41,240 nucleotides of DNA from a virus (taxonomy: Duplodnaviria > Heunggongvirae > Uroviricota > Caudoviricetes): the IMG/VR virus record IMGVR_UViG_2541047725_000010; one strand, 5' to 3'. The notes beneath the pieces are model-generated. The model worked only from the letters and a program-made list of their open reading frames with translations, was not told the DNA's origin and did not search any database. Each line of letters begins with the position of its first letter. The first letter of the stretch is position 1. Shown here piece after piece: positions 1,141 through 41,240 of this stretch. A program made the translations under genes and the position numbers.

Positions 1141-1267
1141 TTCATTCATAGTGCAGGGATCAAAATCATTCCCACTCAATTATTTACGGATACCATAACC
1201 AATTGATTGATAACAACTTTCTGCAACATGATTTTCACCGTACCGTTTTATATACCGTCACCGGAAA

Positions 1268-1765
1268 TCAGTGCCACGATTTTTGCTTCTTCAGTGAATC
1301 GTATTGCTGTTCGCAGGATTCTCCTGCAATCCGATACTTTTCAGCCTCAGCTGCTGTTGCGTTGTAAACTCGATTGCTTTCTTCAAGCATGTCGGCGAGC
1401 ACACCGATGACCTTGCTGGCTGGCGTGCCAGTGGGGAAAGATCCGGTATAGTGTTCGGCGAGTCGCTTGGTTTTGTCAAGCTCGGCGCGCAGGCTGTCAG
1501 CAGCGGCATTAGCATGCTCAGCATCAACACGCGCCACATCGATACGGGATTGTGCTTCACGTTCAATTTGTGTTTTCTCCTGATCACGTTGTGACCTGGC
1601 CTTATCATCAGCCTGTTTCTGATCTTCCTGTGCCTGCGCATACCCGGCATCGTACTGGCGGCTGCCGTGCATATTCCAGGCAACCACTCCGACGATGAAC
1701 AGAGCAGCAAGCATCAACACGATAAGCAACTGTTTCCAGTATGCTTTTACGAATGCCCAGATCAT
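1268..1765 (-). CDS. Rz-like inner-membrane spanin (i-spanin)
   Basis: 165 aa; N-terminal transmembrane anchor then charged coiled coil; directly downstream of endolysin with ATGA start/stop overlap; contains an embedded +1-frame lipoprotein ORF. Confidence 0.6.
1291..1539 (-). CDS. Rz1-like outer-membrane lipoprotein spanin (o-spanin) embedded in Rz
   Basis: Alternate frame wholly inside Rz; start chosen at ATG 1539 giving [17 protein letters not shown] (lipobox LTAC) followed by a Pro-rich mature region; exact start uncertain. Confidence 0.45.
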   Translation of the reverse strand: MWRVLMLSMLMPLLTACAPSLTKPSDSPNTIPDLSPLARQPARSSVCSPTCLKKAIEFTTQQQLRLKSIGLQENPANSNTIH

Positions 1766-2391
1766 ACCGCCAGCACATTACTGGCAGTGATGTACCGCGC
1801 TCTCCGGTCGTCGATGCCGTTCCTGCCACCATTGATAATCAAAGTTACACGAGCAATATCGCCGGTATACTTCATGCAACCTTTGCTGGAGAAGAACCAC
1901 GCCGCGCTACGAGCCGCATATTCGTCCTGCGCTAACAGTTCAGGATTCTCCAGCAGGTCCACTTTCAGGCCGTTTCCGCAGTCACGATAGTTATTCAAAC
2001 CGGTAATCTGGATAAGTCCACGGCCTCGGTAATTCCAGCCGTCACCAGGGGAATTGTTCCCCATGCGTTTGCTGTACACCAGATTGGCGATCGCTCGCTG
2101 GCGCTCGAGTGGCAATGGTGGTTCACCAGCACGGCGACCCAGTGCATTAGCCTGCCCCTGAGTGAGACGCCCAGCCCGAACGAAGTTAGCCAGACCGCTG
2201 ACACTGTAGTTGAAATTCTCCTGCAATCTGGTGAAGCCCACAGATTCATGCCCGACCTGAGCAATAAACATTGCCTGATCCTCTGCTTTGCTGATACCAA
2301 ACTCTTTCATCGCAGAAGTTATATGCGAGAACCAGCGAGCGGCCAGCGCCTCTCTAATACCAGCAGCTCGCTGGAATTGTTTAATCTCCAT
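1762..2391 (-). CDS. Endolysin, glycoside hydrolase family 19 (chitinase-like lysozyme)
   Basis: 209 aa; motifs [12 protein letters not shown] and [12 protein letters not shown] match GH19 signature blocks (from memory); sits between holin-like genes and Rz. Confidence 0.8.
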
Positions 2392-2689
2392 GTTTAGACC
2401 TCGTTATTTTGAAAATCTGAACGACGTTACCGCGCGTTTTAATAACCGCAGCAAGCATGACAGCGTTGATAATGACCTCAGATAAATCCACAGCCATTGG
2501 CGTGCGTAACCAGATTGCATAAACGACACGAACAGGAATACTGGCCGCAGCAACAATCAGGAAATAAGCAATCCACCCACCCCATCTTCGGTGTTGAGAT
2601 CCGTTACGCTGGAAAGTGACAACGCGAATTGCTATGCCAGTACAAATAACTGCATTGGTGATAAGTAAAAACAGGTCATGCGTTACCAT
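2381..2689 (-). CDS. Holin/antiholin-like small membrane protein
   Basis: 102 aa, three hydrophobic segments and a charged C-terminus; overlaps endolysin start. Confidence 0.5.
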
Positions 2690-3092
2690 CGTCTTTTCTC
2701 CCCGGAATTAACTCGCGTGGATTATCGGAACGGTGATAGAGCCAGATACCAATTCGCACTGCGACAATTGCTGATACGAATGCGCCAGCAGAGAAAACAA
2801 TCCCTTTCTCGAACGAGTCCTGCGTGATGGTAGGGATCAGGCTGGCTATGCCGATAAGAATTGATGCTGCTGGTTTGTAAAAAAGAAGGCCGCAGAGAAA
2901 GCTGAGCATCGACAAGAATACGCGACGACGAATTGGATACTCTACCGCAGAGGTAACAAAAATTACCGCACCAGCAAGAGCACCGAGCGCCACCTCTGGC
3001 GGAACACCTACGATAACCGCAGCAAGAGAGCTCACACTAAGCCATTGATTTAAAGACTCAGTTGTTATGTTAACCGACATAGCACACACCAT
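2676..3092 (-). CDS. Holin-like membrane protein
   Basis: 138 aa, 3-4 predicted TM helices, charged C-terminal tail; first gene of the lysis cassette. Confidence 0.5.
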   Translation of the reverse strand: MVCAMSVNITTESLNQWLSVSSLAAVIVGVPPEVALGALAGAVIFVTSAVEYPIRRRVFLSMLSFLCGLLFYKPAASILIGIASLIPTITQDSFEKGIVFSAGAFVSAIVAVRIGIWLYHRSDNPRELIPGRKDDGNA

Positions 3093-3255: not shown

Positions 3256-5862
3256 TTATTTCCTGCAAACTCCAGATGATGTTAATCCATCAAAAATAAC
3301 CTGCACTCTGGCAATAACAACATCAACTCCAGAAGTCGTTTCACTTGCATAACCAAGTTTTATTTTAGATACAATATCCTGAGTAAGTTCAGATATTTCA
3401 GTTTCTGCAATGTTACCAGAGGCCATGTGATTATCGTATGCCATAGAATGAATTCCATTATTGACATCGATTGAACTAGTATGTTTGTGAAAAATAGATG
3501 GGTTTACCTGAAACGAATTTGAACCGATAAGATCAGAAGATACTCCATTCATCACTGCAGTACAGCGTGGAATATTATTATCGGTTATTGTCATATGCAG
3601 ACGGTTACCAGTTAACCCCTCACCAAGTGTGACATAATACGCCAATTCTCCACCTGCATATTGTTTCCCCTCAACAATAACAGTAATCCCTCTTAATTTC
3701 TGATTAGCTAGCAAAAACTTATTACTGTCTATATAGCATTTATTTGCGGAACCAAAAACAGCCCCTTCTAAAATATCTGATGAATAGGAATAAATAAGGT
3801 CACCAGAAACAAAGGAAAGAATATCAGATACGTTTCCTTTTTTAGATAAGTTGGGAGAATAGCTATTAACTATTTCATATTGTCCTGTGATAAAATCAAG
3901 GTAAACGCCATCAGTTTTCATCTCTTTAAAGAAAATGCTATTAAAGCATCCATCAAGAACCGGTGGATATATTCTAGAGCTTGCATAAGCTGTTGGGTGA
4001 TTCTTATTATTACCACTACCAGGCGAATAAACATCTTCGTTAGTCATTGACTTTTTAAGCTTAACAGGAATCATCGGCTGCATATCAATTTTGCAGTTCC
4101 CTGAACCACCGATGCGAGGATAAAATAAACCACCAAACCTTACAATATTACTACTGAATAGTATTTCGTTATCGTTAAGTGTTATCTCAACGAAGTTTCC
4201 AATAAGTTTAAATTCAACTGAAAACAAACCAAGTGGAGCAGATAATTTAACAATATTGCGCATAAAAACACCTACAGTCCCTGTTGATGCAGTATAGTGT
4301 GTGGTTTCAAAGGCAGAGCCTGTATATTTCAAGTTAATGAAATTATTATGGTATGAAGACAATTGGAATTGAATCCCAGAACTAAGGATTTCAATATCTA
4401 CAAATTGAATCCTTACGGAGTAAGAATATGATAAATCTTCATATTCATAAGGCAATGTAACATCTTTTGAAATAGTTGCCCTCACATAATTACCAGAAAC
4501 CACATCAACCCCATCACGTACTGCATTAAAGTAACGATTAAAATCAATAAGCCCAGCGCCAACATACTGCGCATATGAACGAGTCCATCCTGCCATTGCG
4601 TTTCGTCCATTCTGAGCTTCTAAACTGCTAAATTCAGAGTCACTTGTGGTACTTGATGGGAGGATATTTGTACAAAAAACAATTTCAGGCATTGAAGTAA
4701 TATCATTCAGTTCAGCCATCAATTTAAAAAAAGTTTTCTGCGGGAAGTTACCAACATCCCAACCATCTCCGTCATTCATGCCAAAAGCAATAATAACAAC
4801 ATCAGGGTTAATATCACGAATGTAATCAATCCAGCGTCTGTTCGTGTCTGAATACCATGGGTACTGTGAGTTATAAGAAGTAATTGCTGGTGTATCTTTT
4901 CCAAGGTCATAGTACCTCATTCCACCAATTGCTCTGTTAAATAAAGTAGAACTTGGGAATTTCTCTTGCAAAACTCTCTTAAGATGAGCGGCAAAAATGC
5001 TTGATCGATCCACTGTGCTTATATTATATGGGGCACTTAAGCTGTCACCAACTAACACTATTTTTGAGTTAGGCCTTGATAATCTCTCAAGTGTTTTAGA
5101 TGTGACTAAACTGCAGGAATTAATGAACTGAGTACTATTTAGCGTCTGTTCAAGTGTATCACCAAATCTGGTACCAACGTATGATGATCCGTTGACACTT
5201 GCTAGCTTAAGGCATAAATCAGCAGTATCTGTAATTGAAAAAATAGGAACAGGACGTCCTAAACTGTCATACCCCTGAATTGAGTTTGCCCTAGAAGATG
5301 CTGATGCCATTTCGCTTACTATCTCAGGGAAGCGGAGTGTTTTAGATATGTTGCTGTTAATAACTCCTTTGATAGATGAGTCTGTATATTTCTTCGTGGA
5401 AGCGTCCTGAGGAAATAATGGATCATCAAGGTTACGAATACGATTGCCGAGTGCATCGTAGTAAGTGGCACTAAATGATGGTTTACGAAGAGCCAGCCGA
5501 GCCATGCTTTTGACTAACTGGATCAGCATCGTTAGCTTATCAAAAGCATCCTCATGCACTTCCGCAAAGAACTTACCCTGATTGCGCAGATCAGTTTCCT
5601 GTGTAACCGGTAGCTCTCGTGATATAGAAATCTTATAGCCATTGGCCAACGCCTTCGACAATATTACATTTCCACCATTGTATCCTCCGGCCCCGGTAAC
5701 TATATAATCAGTATCAAGAGTCAGTACGGTGATATTTTCATGAATATCAACAACCTGCACAATCAAATCAGATTTATTGAAAACCCTAAAGGCATACGGA
5801 AACGATGTCGTAACGCCGTTACCGGTGTATTCGTTGTGGTCAACTTCGGTTGAGACCGTCAT
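3256..5862 (-). CDS. Tailspike / receptor-binding protein with internal GDSL/SGNH esterase domain
   Basis: 868 aa; conserved N-terminal anchor MTVSTEVDHNEYTGNGVTTSFPY; SGNH blocks VLVGDSLS (about 5040-5065), NRAIGG, FGMNDGDG (about 4761-4787); GGAG RBS; distal part visibly AT-richer. Confidence 0.8.
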   Translation of the reverse strand: MTVSTEVDHNEYTGNGVTTSFPYAFRVFNKSDLIVQVVDIHENITVLTLDTDYIVTGAGGYNGGNVILSKALANGYKISISRELPVTQETDLRNQGKFFAEVHEDAFDKLTMLIQLVKSMARLALRKPSFSATYYDALGNRIRNLDDPLFPQDASTKKYTDSSIKGVINSNISKTLRFPEIVSEMASASSRANSIQGYDSLGRPVPIFSITDTADLCLKLASVNGSSYVGTRFGDTLEQTLNSTQFINSCSLVTSKTLERLSRPNSKIVLVGDSLSAPYNISTVDRSSIFAAHLKRVLQEKFPSSTLFNRAIGGMRYYDLGKDTPAITSYNSQYPWYSDTNRRWIDYIRDINPDVVIIAFGMNDGDGWDVGNFPQKTFFKLMAELNDITSMPEIVFCTNILPSSTTSDSEFSSLEAQNGRNAMAGWTRSYAQYVGAGLIDFNRYFNAVRDGVDVVSGNYVRATISKDVTLPYEYEDLSYSYSVRIQFVDIEILSSGIQFQLSSYHNNFINLKYTGSAFETTHYTASTGTVGVFMRNIVKLSAPLGLFSVEFKLIGNFVEITLNDNEILFSSNIVRFGGLFYPRIGGSGNCKIDMQPMIPVKLKKSMTNEDVYSPGSGNNKNHPTAYASSRIYPPVLDGCFNSIFFKEMKTDGVYLDFITGQYEIVNSYSPNLSKKGNVSDILSFVSGDLIYSYSSDILEGAVFGSANKCYIDSNKFLLANQKLRGITVIVEGKQYAGGELAYYVTLGEGLTGNRLHMTITDNNIPRCTAVMNGVSSDLIGSNSFQVNPSIFHKHTSSIDVNNGIHSMAYDNHMASGNIAETEISELTQDIVSKIKLGYASETTSGVDVVIARVQVIFDGLTSSGVCRK

Positions 5863-6038: not shown

Positions 6039-6057
6039 ATTGCATGGAGAAGATAAG

Positions 6058-6315
6058 ATGCAGCGGTATCACTATCCACTGGAAGACGGATTTACCGAAA
6101 GGATTCACACGCCGGGAGGCGTCAGGTCACTGGTGGAGGGATCGCACTTGATGAAATTACTCCGGGATCTCGATAAGGATGGATTTAATGTCGATGGCCC
6201 ACTTGCCGAACTGACTGCACTGATTAACTACGTCACCAGCTCACAGATGTCTATGCGGGATCTGCAAACACATCTCGACTATTGTGCCGAACAATTACGA
6301 AAACAAACCAGATAA
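6058..6315 (+). CDS. Small protein paralogous to the antirepressor C-terminal domain (SOS-controlled)
   Basis: 85 aa from ATG 6058 (track ORF 6040-6315); aligns by eye at about 50% identity with residues about 160-240 of the adjacent antirepressor (e.g. LMKLLRDLDKDGFNVDGPLAELT vs LMNLLNQLQEDGHDVSGAAAELT). Confidence 0.6.
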   Translation: MQRYHYPLEDGFTERIHTPGGVRSLVEGSHLMKLLRDLDKDGFNVDGPLAELTALINYVTSSQMSMRDLQTHLDYCAEQLRKQTR

Positions 6316-6345
6316 GGTTTGCAATTACCAAGTGGAGTGCTTATA

Positions 6346-6362
6346 TTTACCTTTGAGGTAAA
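6346..6362. promoter_or_regulatory. Operator-like palindrome TTTACC-TTTGA-GGTAAA
   Basis: Same motif family as 5966-5982. Confidence 0.45.
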
Positions 6363-6455
6363 TTTACATCGCACTCCTCTTGTGCCATAGTAATCGGGCA
6401 CTGGCAAAATCCGGTGCCGGGATTGGTCTCCCGGATTACTACAGAGGCACATATG

Positions 6456-6475
6456 CCGCATAAGCGGTTTTTTTT
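6456..6475 (+). terminator. Putative intrinsic terminator after the LexA-controlled small gene
   Basis: Short GC stem CCGC-ataa-GCGG followed by an 8-T run; sits inside a 314-bp hairpin-rich noncoding gap. Confidence 0.4.
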
Positions 6476-6629
6476 ATGTGTAAAGCGCACCTATTCTATG
6501 GTGGGCTGTGTGGGGGCACCGAAAGGTGCGCCGGGTTCCTTTGTAGCCGGTAAGACCAACTCTGCACAGTTCACCACCATCTGATTGGTCTCAGCGGTGG
6601 TGATTAACCTAACTACAAAGGTGATCGCC

Positions 6630-7322
6630 ATGAATACCAAACCTTCCATCTTTTCCTTTGAGTCATCCTGCCAGATCCGTATGTTCATGATTGACGGAGA
6701 ACCTTGGTTTGTCACCAAAGATGTGTGCAATGCTTTGAATATTGATGTTACACAAGCGAGAAAACTTGATAAAAAAGGCTGGAACAAAAAGGGGCTGTAT
6801 TCAATACAGACCCCTGGTGGAATACAAGAACTATCCATCGTTTCAGAATCAGGTCTCTACATCCTTATTCTGCGTTGCAAAGAGGCAATGACTGAGGGAA
6901 CGAGAGCATTCAGATTTCTTGAATGGGTTACAGGCGAGGTTCTTCCTCAGATCCGCCGCACCGGAAGTTACATTAAAAACTCGCTACCGCAGGAAGAACG
7001 CATAAAGATGGTTGCCGACCAGGTAGCCAACGCCACGGCGTCAGCAGTAATGCAGGCGATGAAGATAGAGAACAAAACCTACAACGCCCCGCTGAAGCCC
7101 GGCTACCGCAGCCTGATTCATTCCCCGTCTGGTGTTCTCGGCCTGACGGAGAACTCACTGCTGATGAATCTGCTGAACCAGTTACAGGAAGACGGGCACG
7201 ACGTATCGGGCGCGGCGGCGGAGCTGACCACCATGTTCTGCTACATCGTCGGTGTGAGCAAATGCCTGCGTGATATCCAGACGCACGCGGAGTACATCAA
7301 CGACAAAGCAGGGTTCTTCTGA
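6630..7322 (+). CDS. Phage antirepressor, BRO-N N-terminal domain with KilA-C/Ant-type C-terminal domain
   Basis: 230 aa from ATG 6630 (AAGGTG RBS); N-terminal FSFESSCQIRMFMIDGEPWFVTKDVCNALNI is a BRO-N signature (from memory). Confidence 0.75.
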   Translation: MNTKPSIFSFESSCQIRMFMIDGEPWFVTKDVCNALNIDVTQARKLDKKGWNKKGLYSIQTPGGIQELSIVSESGLYILILRCKEAMTEGTRAFRFLEWVTGEVLPQIRRTGSYIKNSLPQEERIKMVADQVANATASAVMQAMKIENKTYNAPLKPGYRSLIHSPSGVLGLTENSLLMNLLNQLQEDGHDVSGAAAELTTMFCYIVGVSKCLRDIQTHAEYINDKAGFF

Positions 7323-7393
7323 CGGGCGGCGGCACAGGGATGTGCCTTTAAATAATTCTGTACAGATTGCAGACTGGGGGTGAATAGCGTACT

Positions 7394-7410
7394 ATTACCT
7401 TAAAGGTAAA
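7394..7410. promoter_or_regulatory. Operator-like palindrome ATTACC-TTAAA-GGTAAA
   Basis: 41 bp upstream of the ATG at 7452. Confidence 0.45.
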
Positions 7411-7451
7411 CCTGTTTTTATTTTATACCTGTAACTTACCGGAGATTAAAG

Positions 7452-7778
7452 ATGACAAAACTTGGATTCGTGATGAGAGGTCCGGTAAGAAGCGGAACTC
7501 ATGCAAAGCGTAGCAAGAGTCGTATTTTTACTGGTAAGGTTGTAGCACGTAAATCAGCTATTGGCTCGTTCAATAGTGAAAATGCGGCATTGCGCCATAT
7601 TTTTATCAGCACAAAGCCAAGAGCATCCGCTGATGTGCATACAATGACTATTCCTATCACAAAGAATATAAAGCGGATAAAAAAGCTCTCATCTGCAGAA
7701 TCAAAAGAGATATCTTTCCGCCAGCTTAACTCATTAGAAACGCATATGAAGGAAGAGGAATTCGATGTTTTTGAGTGA
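7452..7778 (+). CDS. Basic hypothetical protein, upstream partner of a toxin-like gene
   Basis: 108 aa; strong GGAG RBS; Lys/Arg-rich N-terminus; no family recognised; 14-bp overlap with the next gene. Confidence 0.5.
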   Translation: MTKLGFVMRGPVRSGTHAKRSKSRIFTGKVVARKSAIGSFNSENAALRHIFISTKPRASADVHTMTIPITKNIKRIKKLSSAESKEISFRQLNSLETHMKEEEFDVFE

Positions 7779-8277
7779 GTATAGCGGGAAGGTTATACCT
7801 ACTGGTGAGTTTAAAACTGATGACTTTCTGATTTCGCTAAAAGATGCTTTTAAACAACACTGGCGTCATGGTCATCATCCTGATCTGGGAAAAGATACTC
7901 TTTTTGAAAGACCAGACGAAGTATTAGGTTTCCATCTCAGAAAGGTTCATGTCAATATTGGTGAATATGCATCATATTCATACTCATGTACTGAACAGTG
8001 TTGGGATGAGTGGTCATATGGATTGATTGATGAACAAGGAAATTACAGGCCAAAACCAACCAGTAACGCATATCTCATATATGCAGTCAATGAAATAAGA
8101 GATGCAGCCTTACTAGCTTATTGGGACCCGCCCGCACACACCAAAGCTAACGCAAAAGTTTGGATGGATTCCGTATTGAATTTCACAAAATTATTTCATG
8201 AACGAACGAATACAGCTCCACTTAGTAGAAATGTTTATCCGTGGGATTATTCGTACAAATCCAAAAAGCCTGCATAG
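7765..8277 (+). CDS. YafO-like toxin-family protein (putative ribosome-dependent mRNA interferase)
   Basis: 170 aa; AAGGAAGAGG RBS inside the upstream gene; by-eye similarity to E. coli YafO recalled from memory (G[KR]D-x-L[FY], RKVHVNI vs ERVAHIHL, AYLIYAV vs AHLVYCQ); unverified. Confidence 0.45.
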   Translation: MFLSEYSGKVIPTGEFKTDDFLISLKDAFKQHWRHGHHPDLGKDTLFERPDEVLGFHLRKVHVNIGEYASYSYSCTEQCWDEWSYGLIDEQGNYRPKPTSNAYLIYAVNEIRDAALLAYWDPPAHTKANAKVWMDSVLNFTKLFHERTNTAPLSRNVYPWDYSYKSKKPA

Positions 8278-13326: not shown

Positions 13327-15836
13327 TGCGGAATATCTCCGGAGAATCTCTGGCGCTTCTGTGTCAGATTAAGAACAACGGGAGAACCATCATCTTTCAG
13401 CAGATAACCAGTACCAAGCTTCACCAGGTACTGACTATCGCCGTAACTTTGCAAACCATACTGACCAGGCGGTGTTTTTATCCCGGAGCCGACAACTTGT
13501 TCATTCCAAGCCTGATTAACCTGCTTATCGAATTGCTCTGCAGACATTCCCCACGGCAAAAGGACATTCCCCATTCCGTTATAGTCATGCACGCCACCTG
13601 TAGCTACGTTAACAGCCTGTTTCCAGACATCATTGTCAATTTCTCCTGATACCACGCCTTTTTTCGCCATCACACCAGCGTAATAATCCTTTGCGATCTC
13701 GTATGCCATTGATGCCCCATGAGCGTCACCAGCAAATGCATCCTTCACCATGTCAGAAAACTCAAGGCGAAGATCAGCATCTTTAGGCATCGGAATACCT
13801 TTCGCATCATCAGTACCTTTACGAGCCGCCGCGCCAGCAAGAATTGTCTGCGCAGCGGTTTCAGGAGACACGGAAACATCCGGATTAAACCAGTTTTTTT
13901 CTGCCAAAATACCACCAGGCTTATCCATCAGTATCCCGGCAACGGCAGCAGATGGAGCGTTGGCACTGATCTGCTGTAGTGCTGACATATACATCTGCCC
14001 ACCACCAGTGCTCTGCCTGATGGTATCGAGATATGCTGCCTGTTGGGAAACTGGAGCATCACGAAAGAAAACACCGATCTGATTGGCCTCGTCTTTGGAA
14101 AAGAACGTCAGTGGAGTGCCATATGACTTAGCAAGGTCACTGACCTGAGCGGCACGCAAGGCAACGCTCTGTCCAAAGTTATCCTTATTGCTCATGTCGA
14201 TAGGCTTTGCCTGTCCGGAGGCAAGAGAGAACTGCACAGGATCCGACTGCCGCTGCTTTATCACCTGATTTGCAGCCGAAACAACGTTGTCATAAAGAGC
14301 TGCGCGTGCCGCATACCCCTCCCCTGTATCACCAGTATCCGGGCGTAATTGCTCAACATATGCTGTAATGCTGCTTGTCGGCATGTTGCGGAAAGAGCCT
14401 ATATACTGTCCGGCGATCTGCGTATTCTTAAACTCGGTATATCGCAGGTTTCCTTCTCTGACTCCATAAGCTGCAATAAAATCATCCTCACCAGGTGGGT
14501 TAGGAAATTCAACGCCACGCATATACGCAGCCGTCGCATCGCGAACCCGGCTGTCGAGCATCGTTTTATATTCAGCCTGCTGCTGCCGACGCAGTTGATC
14601 CGCCTGTCGCATAAAACTTGCTTGCGCCTCAGGAGATGCCGCATCGAATGCTGCATTACCGGTATAGCGTTTGGTGTTGGTTGGAATTGTTGATAAACCA
14701 AGTGCTGCACTGACACCAGCAGTTAACTGCTGATCACTGTATGGCTGGCTACCGTTCTCATGATGGATAATGGCTGCACAAAGCGCCTTCAGGGTATCAG
14801 GATTAGATGCATCGAGAGGCTCATCAGCAGAAACGCCAAGTTGTTCGCACACTGCTTTGATATACGACATAGTGTCATTTTTATCAGTAGGCGGTGCCCA
14901 GCGATTAATTATCTCGCTGACGGTATCAATACCCTGCCTCTGATACGACATCAGGTTCCGCCCTAATGCACGAATCCCGTGTTCAGGTGTTTCGAATTTA
15001 GCAAATCGACCATCATCACCGGTCTGGCCTACCCACGGATTAGTTTTGCTGTATTCGAGATTTCCTGGGTTATTGTTGCGTATGCCACGGGCACGCTCGG
15101 AAGAGTCACTATCTGCTACAGCACGGCGAGCTCCAGCAGCAGTATCACTTAACTCGCCATTACTTTGGATGAATGCGGTCGCATTGTTTGCCGACCACTG
15201 GGACAATGCAGCATCAGCAACCTTCTCTTTAAACTCGATTTTCTTGGCCTGGATTTGCTCGTCACTCCAGCCATGTGCAATGCCGTAATCCTCAATTTGC
15301 TGGAAAGTTTGCTTATTAGCCAATACGTATGCGGCGTTGTCGCCATACAATGCTGCGGCATTTTTACCATTGTTCAGCAGCGTAGCCTGAAACTGGCCTT
15401 CTTCGTAGGCATTTATTTGCCCTATCTCGTGCCGCCCTGCCTGCGTAGTGAACTGAATGCGCTGCTGCTGCGCCTGCTGCATGAAAGCATTACGAGCCTG
15501 TTCATCCGGCAGCGACATAGCCAGTTGTTCGACCTGAGCATCAAACTGCTGCGTATACTCCTGACCTTTTCCAATAGCATTTTTCCCTTTCAGGTTAAGC
15601 AATCCTGTTTCAGGATTATTCAGCAGATCACTGCTTATCTGACTGAGGTTAAGAGATGCCTCCTGAGCCAGAGCGATATTGGCACGCTGTTTTGCCTGAC
15701 CAAAAACATCAATTGCCTCTGTCCCTGCCCGAACAAAAGCATCACCAATACCTGGCTGAGAAAACGTCTGCAAGCCTGCTGACTGAACTCCACGGCTCTG
15801 AACCTGACGGCCGGATACTGTTGGTACGACTGGCAT
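13323..15836 (-). CDS. Large virion internal protein (T7 gp15-like position)
   Basis: Start placed at ATG 15836 (GGAGG RBS, TAATG coupling) rather than the track start 15911; about 837 aa. Confidence 0.55.
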   Translation of the reverse strand: MPVVPTVSGRQVQSRGVQSAGLQTFSQPGIGDAFVRAGTEAIDVFGQAKQRANIALAQEASLNLSQISSDLLNNPETGLLNLKGKNAIGKGQEYTQQFDAQVEQLAMSLPDEQARNAFMQQAQQQRIQFTTQAGRHEIGQINAYEEGQFQATLLNNGKNAAALYGDNAAYVLANKQTFQQIEDYGIAHGWSDEQIQAKKIEFKEKVADAALSQWSANNATAFIQSNGELSDTAAGARRAVADSDSSERARGIRNNNPGNLEYSKTNPWVGQTGDDGRFAKFETPEHGIRALGRNLMSYQRQGIDTVSEIINRWAPPTDKNDTMSYIKAVCEQLGVSADEPLDASNPDTLKALCAAIIHHENGSQPYSDQQLTAGVSAALGLSTIPTNTKRYTGNAAFDAASPEAQASFMRQADQLRRQQQAEYKTMLDSRVRDATAAYMRGVEFPNPPGEDDFIAAYGVREGNLRYTEFKNTQIAGQYIGSFRNMPTSSITAYVEQLRPDTGDTGEGYAARAALYDNVVSAANQVIKQRQSDPVQFSLASGQAKPIDMSNKDNFGQSVALRAAQVSDLAKSYGTPLTFFSKDEANQIGVFFRDAPVSQQAAYLDTIRQSTGGGQMYMSALQQISANAPSAAVAGILMDKPGGILAEKNWFNPDVSVSPETAAQTILAGAAARKGTDDAKGIPMPKDADLRLEFSDMVKDAFAGDAHGASMAYEIAKDYYAGVMAKKGVVSGEIDNDVWKQAVNVATGGVHDYNGMGNVLLPWGMSAEQFDKQVNQAWNEQVVGSGIKTPPGQYGLQSYGDSQYLVKLGTGYLLKDDGSPVVLNLTQKRQRFSGDIPQ

Positions 15837-16381
15837 TATAATCCTCCGGGTAATCTGGTTCCTGCTGCTGACCCGATTGGCGCAGGGGTGCTTTGAGTAA
15901 ACGGACTCCACGTCCCACCAAACATCTGGTACGCACCGTATGCCTTCAGAGGCGCAGTGAGCAATGTTGTTGCTGCTCCCACATTCTCCTGTTTACGGGC
16001 TGAACTGGCTTCTGCTTTATAGTTGGCAGCCTGAACCTGATAACCGTAAGCCTCGCGTTGCGCGTTATTCACCGTCGTCAGCGAATCAAGAGCGCCAAAC
16101 TGGGCAGTGTCGCCAAATATATCCAGCGCGTTACCTGTAGATAAATCAGCGCCGGTAGCCCCCATTGTCGCCGCCTGTGTACCAAGCCGCTGTCGGGTCT
16201 CTCTGCGCCGTTGCTCAGCTTCAGCGTTACCTCTGTTTATTGCATCATTTGCCTGAGCTGTGGCTATATCTGCGTTCGCTTCTGCAACCTTCGAGGTATA
16301 CTTTCCCTGTTGGTACTGGGTGTATGCCTGAATGCCACTCATGGCGAGCATTGCGCCACCAGCAATAACCGGATCGCACAT
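15836..16381 (-). CDS. Small virion internal protein (T7 gp14-like position)
   Basis: 181 aa; N-terminal hydrophobic segment, Ala/Gln-rich; coupled to neighbours. Confidence 0.45.
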   Translation of the reverse strand: MCDPVIAGGAMLAMSGIQAYTQYQQGKYTSKVAEANADIATAQANDAINRGNAEAEQRRRETRQRLGTQAATMGATGADLSTGNALDIFGDTAQFGALDSLTTVNNAQREAYGYQVQAANYKAEASSARKQENVGAATTLLTAPLKAYGAYQMFGGTWSPFTQSTPAPIGSAAGTRLPGGL

Positions 16382-16845
16382 TATTTTCTCTCCATGTGAA
16401 ATCTGTGGAAATTAAGACCAAGAGCACCATAAGGCGCGGCTTCTTCAAGCCTGAATCCAAGCCAGTGCAGCCATGCTTTGGCAACATGGTTTCGCTCGTC
16501 GACATAGTTTTCCAGGCGCGGATAAACTGCCAGCATCTGCTGCAATACAGGGCGGCAGTGGCGAAGAAATGTCTTCTGATATTTTTCGATACGGCTGGTT
16601 CCGACCAGCCAGGGCGTACCATTGCCACCGATCATTGACGCCGGAGATACGCCAAACATGGTTACCAGTTCTCCGTTCGCAAATCCTGACCAGGACATAG
16701 TCGCAGTACGCAGACCAACACGCAGCGCATCTTCGGTAGTCATCAGTGATACCGCATACAGTTCGTCAATATCAGCCTGACGAACATCCGGCAAAATCAT
16801 CTGAAGATGCTCTTCGGTTGCGGGAATAATTTGAACATCGATCAT
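16381..16845 (-). CDS. Virion-associated protein (T7 gp13-like position)
   Basis: 154 aa; coupled to the tail-tube B-like gene. Confidence 0.45.
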   Translation of the reverse strand: MIDVQIIPATEEHLQMILPDVRQADIDELYAVSLMTTEDALRVGLRTATMSWSGFANGELVTMFGVSPASMIGGNGTPWLVGTSRIEKYQKTFLRHCRPVLQQMLAVYPRLENYVDERNHVAKAWLHWLGFRLEEAAPYGALGLNFHRFHMERK

Positions 16846-25449: not shown

Positions 25450-25526
25450 GTGGCATTAGCTCAGTTGGACAGAGCAACCGCCTTCTAAGCGGTTGGTCGC
25501 AGGTTCGAATCCTGCATGCCACGCCA
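25450..25526 (+). tRNA. tRNA-Arg, anticodon UCU (phage-encoded)
   Basis: Hand-folded cloverleaf: 7-bp acceptor GTGGCAT/ATGCCAC, D-stem GCTC/GAGC, anticodon stem ACCGC/GCGGT with loop CTTCTAA, T-stem GCAGG/CCTGC with GGTTCGAATCC, discriminator G and encoded CCA. Confidence 0.85.
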
Positions 25527-39983: not shown

Positions 39984-41240
39984 TTATTTATTACTGTCTT
40001 CCATCCACCTCTCAAACTTCGACGGGGAGAACGGAATCAGATCCGTATGCTCCCCGTTAATCCAGGAATCAATCATATCGGCCCACTGCTGCAACATCCA
40101 GGCGCGCTGTCTGGCGTATTCCGCTTTGTTATATACGGCGCGCACACCTTTCTGCTCATGTGCCAGCGCCTTTTCAATCCAGTCTGAAGGATAACCAGCC
40201 TCATGCAACAACGTACTGGCTGTACGGCGCATATCGTGTACGGTGAAGCCCTGAATATGCTCACCATCTTCATTTATTATTTTCACCGTTCTGTCGATCA
40301 GAGAGTTCAGCGCGGCATTAGATAATGGCTTCCGGAAATTGTAACGACCAGGAACCAGATATTCACTTCCACCAGCGCACATCTGCAACCCAACCAATAT
40401 ATCCTGTGCCTGTTTAGGCAGGTAAATAACGTGCGCCCGGCTTCCCTTCATGCGGTCTGAAGGAATTGTCCATGTCCATTTTTTAAAATCTATTTCATCC
40501 CACGTTGCATTGGTGAATTCGCCTTTACGAACCATAGTGATAAGCACCAGCTTTAAAGCCATTTTCATAGTGCCCATAGCACCAATGGCATCCAGCGTGC
40601 GGAAGAACAGGCCAATTTCTTCTGGTGTCAGTGTTCGCTCTCGTGGTTTAAATATGGCGATAGACGAAGGTTTAATGTCAGCCGCAGGATTAAACAAACC
40701 ATGACCACGGTCATTGGCGTGACGGTATACGCTGCTGATGATCTCCCTGGCCTGTACTGCTGTTGCCCGACCACCGCGTTCGACAATCCGGTCACACAAA
40801 TCACGAACCATCGATGTGGTAATTTCAGCCATCATTTTGTTGCCAAGAACCGGAAGTATGTCACGGTCGATCACCGCCTGCTTCATTGCGCGGGTACTGT
40901 CAGCCAGGATGACGTGTTTCATATAACTGTCGGTATGTACCGCAAACGTCTCGGCACCACGAATCTTTTTGATACCGTCACGTTTAGCCGCAGCCGGTGA
41001 CTGGCCTGCTTTAAGCAGCTTCTTTGCAGCAATCAGTTCTTCTCGCGCTTCTGCCAGGCTGATACCGTCACGCCCATACTGCCCGATTACCAGTGTTTCG
41101 CGGCGACCGTTGATACGGTAGTCATAGCGAAACGAGACCGTGCCTGACGTAAGCACAGCTACATACAGCCCGTCACGGTCGGAGACCTTGTACAGTTTGT
41201 CCTGCGGCTTGAGGTTTTTTAATTTTGTATCGGTAAGCAC
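39984..41240 (-). CDS. int: Tyrosine site-specific integrase (P4/IntS-like)
   Basis: 418 aa; N-terminal arm-binding-like region and C-terminal HxxR...Y catalytic region; GTG start sits exactly at the window edge, so the true 5' end and att site are not visible. Confidence 0.85.
   Translation of the reverse strand: MLTDTKLKNLKPQDKLYKVSDRDGLYVAVLTSGTVSFRYDYRINGRRETLVIGQYGRDGISLAEAREELIAAKKLLKAGQSPAAAKRDGIKKIRGAETFAVHTDSYMKHVILADSTRAMKQAVIDRDILPVLGNKMMAEITTSMVRDLCDRIVERGGRATAVQAREIISSVYRHANDRGHGLFNPAADIKPSSIAIFKPRERTLTPEEIGLFFRTLDAIGAMGTMKMALKLVLITMVRKGEFTNATWDEIDFKKWTWTIPSDRMKGSRAHVIYLPKQAQDILVGLQMCAGGSEYLVPGRYNFRKPLSNAALNSLIDRTVKIINEDGEHIQGFTVHDMRRTASTLLHEAGYPSDWIEKALAHEQKGVRAVYNKAEYARQRAWMLQQWADMIDSWINGEHTDLIPFSPSKFERWMEDSNK

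Follow-up and report, generated by a model that had tools for sequence, protein, structure and literature searches.

Several tail spikes are known to deacetylate the surface polysaccharide of the host, and esterase-type receptor-binding proteins are well documented (bioRxiv 10.64898/2026.07.31.742079; PMC13123978; PMC10743462). G7C gp63.1 (PDB 4QNL) removes acetyl groups from O-antigen without depolymerising it, an activity that is required for infection (PMC10743462, PMC12625404). An N-terminally truncated form of gp66 from Possum, an N4-like virulent Pectobacterium phage (Schitoviridae, Cbunavirus), is a trimer in solution and, as nuclear magnetic resonance showed, takes the 2-O-acetyl group off rhamnose in the host O-polysaccharide; the backbone is left intact (PMC9569702). 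The SGNH esterase of epsilon15 gp20, with residues S787, G813, N937, and H1038, also deacetylates O-antigen (bioRxiv 10.64898/2026.07.31.742079), and two SGNH receptor-binding proteins from Klebsiella prophages hydrolyse p-nitrophenyl acetate and have been proposed to deacetylate capsule, not to depolymerise it (PMC13123978). With G7C gp63.1, Possum gp66, epsilon15 gp20, and the Klebsiella prophages, esterase tail spikes are thus already established.

Here we describe a tail-spike gene at 3256..5862 on the minus strand of a 41,240-nucleotide stretch of Caudoviricetes DNA (IMG/VR record IMGVR_UViG_2541047725_000010; hereafter the window), which belongs to an Escherichia coli prophage. We consider it likely, at a probability of about three in four, that the gene encodes an epsilon15-like receptor-binding spike with an insert-split SGNH carbohydrate O-acetylesterase (aa 255-645) and two beta-sandwiches, a reading drawn from sequence comparison and a predicted structure. 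The class of protein is already known, the RefSeq label of the product is already SGNH hydrolase, and knowledge of the class is unchanged. PHROGs still lists the family as function unknown, and our analysis extends an earlier finding by indicating where its catalytic His probably lies. Deacetylating, non-depolymerising tail spikes are increasingly viewed as a common host-recognition strategy, notably in temperate phages, to which this gene would add an E. coli epsilon15-like case with an esterase wholly replacing the beta-helix body.

The SGNH esterase domain and its candidate catalytic histidine

The gene and the features of its esterase and beta-sandwich regions are as follows, all on the minus strand.

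3256..5862 (-), complete tail-spike/receptor-binding protein gene, 868 aa plus stop (open reading frame list; RefSeq identity)
4510..5100 (-), SGNH esterase domain, N-terminal part with blocks I-III, aa 255-451
5041..5049 (-), block I, G272-D273-S274, with S274 as predicted nucleophile (invariant in 32 homologues; aligned to the GDS of Possum gp66)
4921..4938 (-), block II, NRAIGG, with G314 (4921-4923) as predicted oxyanion-hole glycine (N309 and G314 invariant)
4771..4782 (-), block III, G361-M-N363-D364, with N363 as predicted oxyanion-hole asparagine (invariant)
4054..4509 (-), predicted nested all-beta sandwich, concanavalin-A/LamG/carbohydrate-binding module (CBM)-like, aa 452-603 (model, fold searches)
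3928..4053 (-), predicted return to the SGNH domain, block V loop plus last helix, aa 604-645 (model, Pfam extension)
3991..4002 (-), block V, N621-H622-P623-T624, with H622 (3997-3999) as predicted general base (conservation)
3259..3927 (-), second, C-terminal beta-sandwich, predicted, aa 646-868 (model, Foldseek)

A preliminary description, made by eye from the sequence, had proposed an SGNH domain on the basis of three motifs, and all three lie within a few bases of the positions given there: GDS is aa 272-274 (5041-5049), NRAIGG is aa 309-314 (4921-4938), and FGMNDGDG is aa 360-367 (4762-4785), each on the minus strand. The domain is real, as Pfam PF13472 (Lipase_GDSL_2) matches aa 271-447 with 38.4 bits against a curated cut-off of 32.9, and G272-D273-S274, N309, G314, and G361-M-N363-D364 are invariant in an alignment of 32 homologues that share 22-44% identity with the query over their full length. 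The marks of the SGNH superfamily are accordingly found together: block I reads G272-D273-S274-L275 with its Ser near the domain N-terminus, N309...G314 and G361-M-N363-D364 are fully conserved, and a three-layer alpha/beta/alpha fold accompanies the above-threshold profile score. A search of NCBIfam with the protein gave no match, and in PHROGs one function-unknown family spans its whole length (1-868 in a profile of 868 positions), the other matches being confined to the anchor. Sequence searches of PDB, with the single protein and with the family profile, left the esterase unmatched and returned only N-terminal attachment domains, including that of G7C gp63.1; a construct from which the insert had been deleted gave one marginal match among PDB sequences, the GDSL protein 3rjt (E 0.5).

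The PF13472 match on the whole protein ends at profile position 155/178, short of block V, and the preliminary description had found no catalytic His block by eye. A His is present all the same. In the 32-member alignment a single His, H622 of the motif 'GGNxxNHPT', reaches at least 90% conservation, and the motif occurs in every full-length homologue and in Possum gp66, being missing just from one truncated sequence. H622 is 258 residues downstream of block III and, in the AlphaFold2 model, sits directly before helix 625-641, the last of the SGNH domain; conservation and model position together mark it as the predicted block V catalytic His. Displacement by the nested domain accounts both for the early end of the Pfam match and for the failure to recognise the block by eye. 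S274 and H622 are now clear mutagenesis targets.

To see how far block V contributes to the profile match, compare the two segments of the domain. Alone, aa 255-451 score 43.1 bits with PF13472 and 27.2 bits with PF00657; joined to aa 604-650 they score 45.8 and 31.9 bits, and the matches reach 173/178 and 203/208. Controls in which the added tail was shuffled, exchanged for an unrelated segment, or altered by H622A give 42.6-43.3 and 26.9-28.9 bits, ending at 155-157 and 177-189. The larger apparent gain on deleting the insert (38.4 to 45.8 bits) was rejected as evidence, as the N-terminal half alone already scores 43.1.

The closest characterised relative is Possum gp66. Residues 258-648 align with it by both tblastn and BLASTP (27% identity, E 4e-32), and the alignment takes in GDS, NRA-GG, FGMND, the insert, and 'GGNGINHPS' in the same order. 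Possum gp66 is also the second-best Foldseek match in a viral structure library (E 2.4e-28 over 600 columns). The esterase module is therefore homologous to that of a proven deacetylating spike, which supports the O-acetyl esterase reading of the preliminary description.

Predicted domain layout and comparison with known systems

The AlphaFold2 model has a mean predicted local distance difference test (pLDDT) of 71.9; the N-terminal 210 residues are poor, and aa 220-862 are mostly at 75-95. Its layout is alpha/beta at aa 255-451, all-beta at aa 452-603, then the H622 loop, a long helix at aa 625-641, and a further all-beta region at aa 650-860. Structure prediction had been suggested in the preliminary description as a check, with a beta-helix in place of an SGNH fold counting against the esterase; it returned an alpha/beta SGNH-type domain, and a beta-helix is absent from the model. 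The protein also differs from classical beta-helix tail spikes in having no pectate-lyase-type Pfam match and in that its likeness to gp20 ends at aa 234. Because the H622 loop and its helix follow the nested all-beta domain, the esterase domain of the model is discontinuous, split by the aa 452-603 beta-sandwich between blocks III and V.

In the model, the strands of the nested sandwich span residues 452-602 (pLDDT ~85-93) and those of the C-terminal sandwich residues 652-858 (pLDDT ~85-94). Fold searches pair both with CBM40 sialic-acid-binding modules and with the folds of LamG/neurexin domains, galectins, and the binding domains of clostridial neurotoxins (BoNT Hc); tandem LamG/galectin pairs head the Foldseek list. 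The structural neighbours of the esterase are led by the acetyl-mannan esterase 6hfz (score 16.0; 206 residues, 3.1 A) and include the GDSL-like protein 4q9a (15.9), the Ape1 peptidoglycan O-acetylesterases 8gld and 4k3u (14.9 and 14.2), the acetyl-xylan esterase 7ddy (13.8), and G7C gp63.1, 4qnl (12.7). Family identity to the query is 53% and 46% for the two catalytic halves, 37% for the nested sandwich, and 32% for the C-terminal sandwich, which is the most divergent part. Faster divergence of the sandwiches is what would be expected if they were specificity-determining carbohydrate-binding parts.

Each of the described spikes shares some of these features and departs in others. Possum gp66 has a different anchor and adapter system and a longer stretch ahead of the esterase (about 400 residues; about 255 here); a likeness to a Listeria phage receptor-binding domain is reported for its C-terminus (aa 825-925), whereas the protein described here is predicted to end in a second concanavalin-A-like sandwich. 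G7C gp63.1 is likewise a virion spike with an SGNH esterase domain and carbohydrate-binding modules. However, G7C is an N4-like phage with a branched adsorption apparatus, and the gp63.1 esterase has no detectable sequence similarity to ours: the family profile matches 4qnl at attachment residues 91-164 only, and tblastn misses G7C. Epsilon15 gp20 agrees in anchor and neck (67%, in the VB_ST_E15 homologue), phage type, and gene position. In gp20, though, the esterase is a C-terminal 'petal' on a beta-helix endorhamnosidase, while here it would form the main body with no beta-helix; the subdomain insertion of gp20 lies between blocks II and III and its DxxH Asp, D1035, is present, whereas here the insert is between III and V. 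The two esterase domains have no detectable sequence similarity. Temperate Klebsiella phages also have prophage-encoded SGNH receptor-binding proteins, likened to ours by description, with other anchors (gp11/gp12-type reported) and a presumed capsule target (PMC13123978).

Cellular enzymes provide parallels for the proposed active site and for the nesting. Neisseria Ape1 (4K3U/8GLD) likewise has a CBM inserted within its SGNH domain, and the CE2 family uses a Ser-His dyad without a block V Asp, as proposed here (PMC9487903). RiCE17 (6HFZ), Ape1, and CE2 act on mannan, xylan, or peptidoglycan, and their identity to the query is only 13-17%. Among viruses, HE/HEF of influenza C virus, coronaviruses, and toroviruses follows the same design, with a jelly-roll receptor-binding domain within the discontinuous, receptor-destroying SGNH esterase of a virion attachment protein (PMC9487903); the nesting of aa 452-603 between blocks III and V resembles it at the level of predicted topology only. 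HE/HEF has a classical Ser-His-Asp triad and O-acetylated sialic acids as substrate. Homology to HE/HEF was rejected, as none appeared in the best 50-60 PDB and viral-library structure matches and there was no Pfam match, so that the likeness is an analogy and not membership.

Proposed mechanism, substrate, and rival explanations

With the domain content, the conserved residues, and the homology to a proven deacetylase in hand, we infer the activity, the substrate, the trimer state, and the role of each beta-sandwich as follows. An anchor (aa 1 to ~145) would fix the protein, presumably as a trimer, to the tail, with aa 146-231 as neck. The beta-sandwich domains would bind an O-acetylated surface polysaccharide, which may be O-antigen, capsule, or another exopolysaccharide. 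Acetyl esters would then be hydrolysed, with S274 as nucleophile, G314 and N363 forming the oxyanion hole, and H622 as general base, so that acetyl groups are removed and the polysaccharide backbone is left uncut. Through repeated binding, deacetylation, and release the virion could reach the outer membrane, a mechanism already described for G7C gp63.1 and Possum gp66.

Several points weigh against this reading. The AlphaFold2 model is of a monomer, and the block V loop has a pLDDT of only ~56-74. The gain from adding block V to the Pfam match is small, ~2.6 bits for PF13472 and 3-5 bits for PF00657, yet dependent on H622. No acid is conserved three residues before the His, a position occupied by G, D, N, or K in the family, and the family motif is GGNxxNH instead of the DxxH of block V. 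Finally, the O102 and O15 O-antigen clusters of the two lysogen lineages have no recognisable acetyltransferase, and an acetylated O-antigen substrate is therefore not evident in either.

The block V aspartate is not essential throughout the superfamily, since a Ser-His dyad suffices for activity both in the CE2 family and in SsEst, an esterase of Streptomyces scabies (PMC9487903). As these enzymes are active, its lack here points to a dyad variant rather than to a protein outside the SGNH superfamily. The likely active site, given that block V has no conserved aspartate, is a Ser-His dyad, or one in which the His has another hydrogen-bond partner. The missing aspartate and the two predicted lectin-like domains would also fit a catalytically inert SGNH domain in a protein that acts as a lectin-type adhesin through its sandwiches. 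We consider this improbable, since Ser, Gly, Asn, and His are kept across several hundred 50%-identity clusters, which would be unexpected without selection for catalysis, since Ser-His dyad SGNH enzymes such as CE2 and SsEst are active (PMC9487903), and since Possum gp66, with 'GGNGINHPS' as its block V, is an active deacetylase (PMC9569702). Still more improbable, to our minds, is a deacylase for lipid A, lipoprotein, or phospholipid that aids outer-membrane penetration. The GDSL/SGNH superfamily does include lipases and lysophospholipases, and the matched Pfam families are named lipase/acylhydrolase, but the closest folds are those of carbohydrate esterases (acetyl-mannan, acetyl-xylan, and peptidoglycan O-acetylesterases), both the nested and the C-terminal domain look like carbohydrate-binding modules, and the characterised homologue is a polysaccharide deacetylase (PMC9569702).

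More weight attaches to the question of which acetylated glycan a carbohydrate O-acetylesterase of this kind would act on. Candidates are capsule, colanic acid, enterobacterial common antigen, and an O-antigen whose acetylating gene lies outside the cluster. A substrate other than O-antigen, such as group 2/3 capsule, colanic acid, or enterobacterial common antigen, as in the Klebsiella prophage SGNH proteins, is a serious minority possibility. Alleles that are 99.5% identical occur in lysogens of two O serogroups, O102 and O15, neither O-antigen cluster holds a recognisable acetyltransferase, the colanic-acid acetyltransferases WcaB and WcaF are present in the O102 lysogen, and temperate Klebsiella phages commonly carry SGNH receptor-binding proteins directed at capsule (PMC13123978). 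On the other side, Possum gp66, the closest characterised protein, acts on O-antigen, as do G7C gp63.1 and epsilon15 gp20 (PMC9569702, PMC10743462, bioRxiv 10.64898/2026.07.31.742079); O-acetyltransferase genes often lie outside the O-antigen cluster, and lysogen serogroup is a weak guide to the receptor, since the O-antigen could have switched after lysogeny. By analogy with HE, a more specific design can be imagined, which we put forward tentatively and think rather unlikely: the nested sandwich may be the receptor lectin for the acetylated glycan and the surrounding esterase may destroy the same receptor, allowing a reversible walk by binding, cleavage, and release. The family, several hundred clusters in all, would then be an SGNH clade of its own whose block V, 'GGNxxNH', works without Asp (dyad or Asn support). 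As the same allele is found in O102 and O15 lysogens, the receptor in such a design may be a conserved acetylated glycan and not the serogroup-specific O-antigen.

The lysogens themselves were examined for clues to the substrate of the spike. The O102 cluster comprises rfbBDAC, wzx, wzy, three glycosyltransferase genes, galE, and a gene for one 342-aa protein. The allele in the O15-cluster strain, 99.5% identical, is at the same site between guaA and yfgI, and another carrier of a 99.5% variant is O102. Between the O102 and O15 strains the prophages are 98.6-98.7% identical and the flanking chromosome 99.0%. Because prophage and chromosome have diverged to a similar extent, the O-antigen may have switched after lysogeny, and serogroup is no guide to the receptor. 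Inferring the receptor from lysogen serogroup was abandoned, given the near-identical allele in O102 and O15 and the lack of an acetyltransferase. In the same comparison the distal part of the tail-spike gene (99.5%) is better conserved than the remainder of the prophage. Vertical inheritance of long standing, with a switch of O-antigen, could explain the pattern, as could purifying selection acting on the spike. The 342-aa protein, encoded between wzx and wzy (O102 locus 15358-16386, NZ_CP163448.1), has no Pfam match at E <= 1 and is annotated 'WaaS/CpsH family glycosyltransferase' in other RefSeq genomes. The carriers are prophages of clinically important lineages (O102:H6 genomes and one O15 strain), and knowledge of the substrate would aid host-range prediction and show whether surface O-acetylation controls phage sensitivity.

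Anchor, probable module exchange, and prophage setting

Upstream of the esterase the gene encodes two attachment regions, also on the minus strand.

5428..5862 (-), epsilon15-type virion-attachment anchor, aa 1-145 (within the 67%-identical aa 1-234 match to VB_ST_E15)
5170..5427 (-), neck common to other tail spikes, aa 146-231 (KN1 depolymerase and PHROG matches)

The conserved N-terminal anchor noted in the preliminary description is readily traced. Over residues 1-234 the protein shares 67% identity with the gp20-equivalent tail spike (1070 aa) of the Uetakevirus VB_ST_E15, a Salmonella phage, and similarity ends there. The anchor, aa 1-145, matches the tail-spike N-termini of PDB 28lx/8ck1 (E 5e-24), and aa 135-231 align with the KN1 capsule depolymerases 9m4c/9m4d in their N-terminal region (E 1e-8). 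The gene is a single open reading frame, and its 868-aa product is 100% identical to RefSeq WP_021523201.1, named 'SGNH/GDSL hydrolase family protein', whose gene lies in a prophage of O102:H6 strain M2021_10044824_1_E, flanked by tail genes and a holin-endolysin cassette. A VB_ST_E15-type anchor, together with a location between tail genes and lysis cassette, implies attachment to the virion.

The prophage is complete and is bounded by guaA, at the integrase end, and yfgI. It carries portal, capsid, capsid-cement, and staple genes, large internal-protein genes, and then the tail-spike gene, directly followed by two holin genes, a GH19 endolysin gene, and a DUF2514 spanin-like gene. On account of this gene content and the 67%-identical VB_ST_E15 anchor, sequence relationships identify the gene as the tail spike of an epsilon15-like temperate podovirus, a prophage of E. 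coli. A scan for promoters and terminators around the tail-spike gene gave no signal over background.

Composition changes sharply along the gene. The guanine-plus-cytosine (GC) content and its value at third codon positions (GC3) are 0.437 and 0.434 for aa 1-145, 0.407 and 0.314 for aa 146-231, and 0.361 and 0.267 for aa 232-868. In 1911-nt windows elsewhere, GC has a mean of 0.494, a standard deviation of 0.023, and a minimum of 0.417, so the distal 1.9 kb of the tail-spike gene is the GC minimum of the whole window. These GC windows bear out the visibly AT-rich distal part (0.361 against 0.437 for the anchor) from which a horizontally swapped module had been proposed at the outset, and the proposal gains from the distribution of the module. 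Similarity to other phages at the DNA level breaks off near nt 345-435 of the gene, many PHROG tail families have just aa 1 to ~231-246 in common with the protein, and the 5' part is matched by 494 complete E. coli genomes and the distal part by only 37. The full-length gene is found at >=99% identity in 37 of 5426 such genomes.

The distal 640 aa have homologues at 30-47% identity over 93-98% of their length. Elsewhere this module is fused to the tail-collar fibre N-terminus PF12571, the T7 tail-fibre N-terminus PF03906, or Tail_spike_N PF18668, and sequenced phages with the module include Escherichia phage anhysbys and Kayfunavirus BDX03P1. Among 1.84 billion cluster representatives searched, relatives number 492 with E <= 1e-3 and 282 with E <= 1e-10; the majority cover aa 264-639 (esterase, insert, and block V), ~11 also have the C-terminal sandwich, and the nested sandwich is present in most of the 282. 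Because the module sits on at least three other anchor types and is compositionally foreign here, sequence evidence supports modular exchange of the esterase module; the direction and age of the swap are matters of conjecture. P0016, another E. coli allele, combines the epsilon15-type anchor with the same module (46% identity overall), and the architecture is therefore an established lineage and not a recent one-off.

Some further features of the prophage are recorded here. An opposite-strand accessory gene block of low GC (0.37-0.41) lies between the tail genes and the tail spike at 6040-8277 (+), with a BRO-family protein (6585-7322), a small open reading frame (7452-7778), and a YafO-family toxin (7765-8277); the prophage copy in the O15 strain has a DUF4760 gene in place of the YafO pair. 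Inside the prophage, at 25450-25526 (+), a tRNA-Arg gene (anticodon TCT) separates the terminase-side genes from the portal gene. The virulent Vequintavirus phage BP9 (PP488543.1, 124.9-130.5 kb) has a 100%-identical piece of this prophage beside an IS2 InsA gene, just past rIIB. It comprises the final 320 nt of the tail-spike gene (window 3256-3575), both holins, the endolysin, and the Rz-like gene (lysis genes at ~1265-3092), and continues straight into integrase, phosphatase, and methylase genes (window end, ~40000-41240), which corresponds to the junction that forms when the prophage is excised as a circle. Either the phage captured DNA of a host prophage or the assembly is chimeric.

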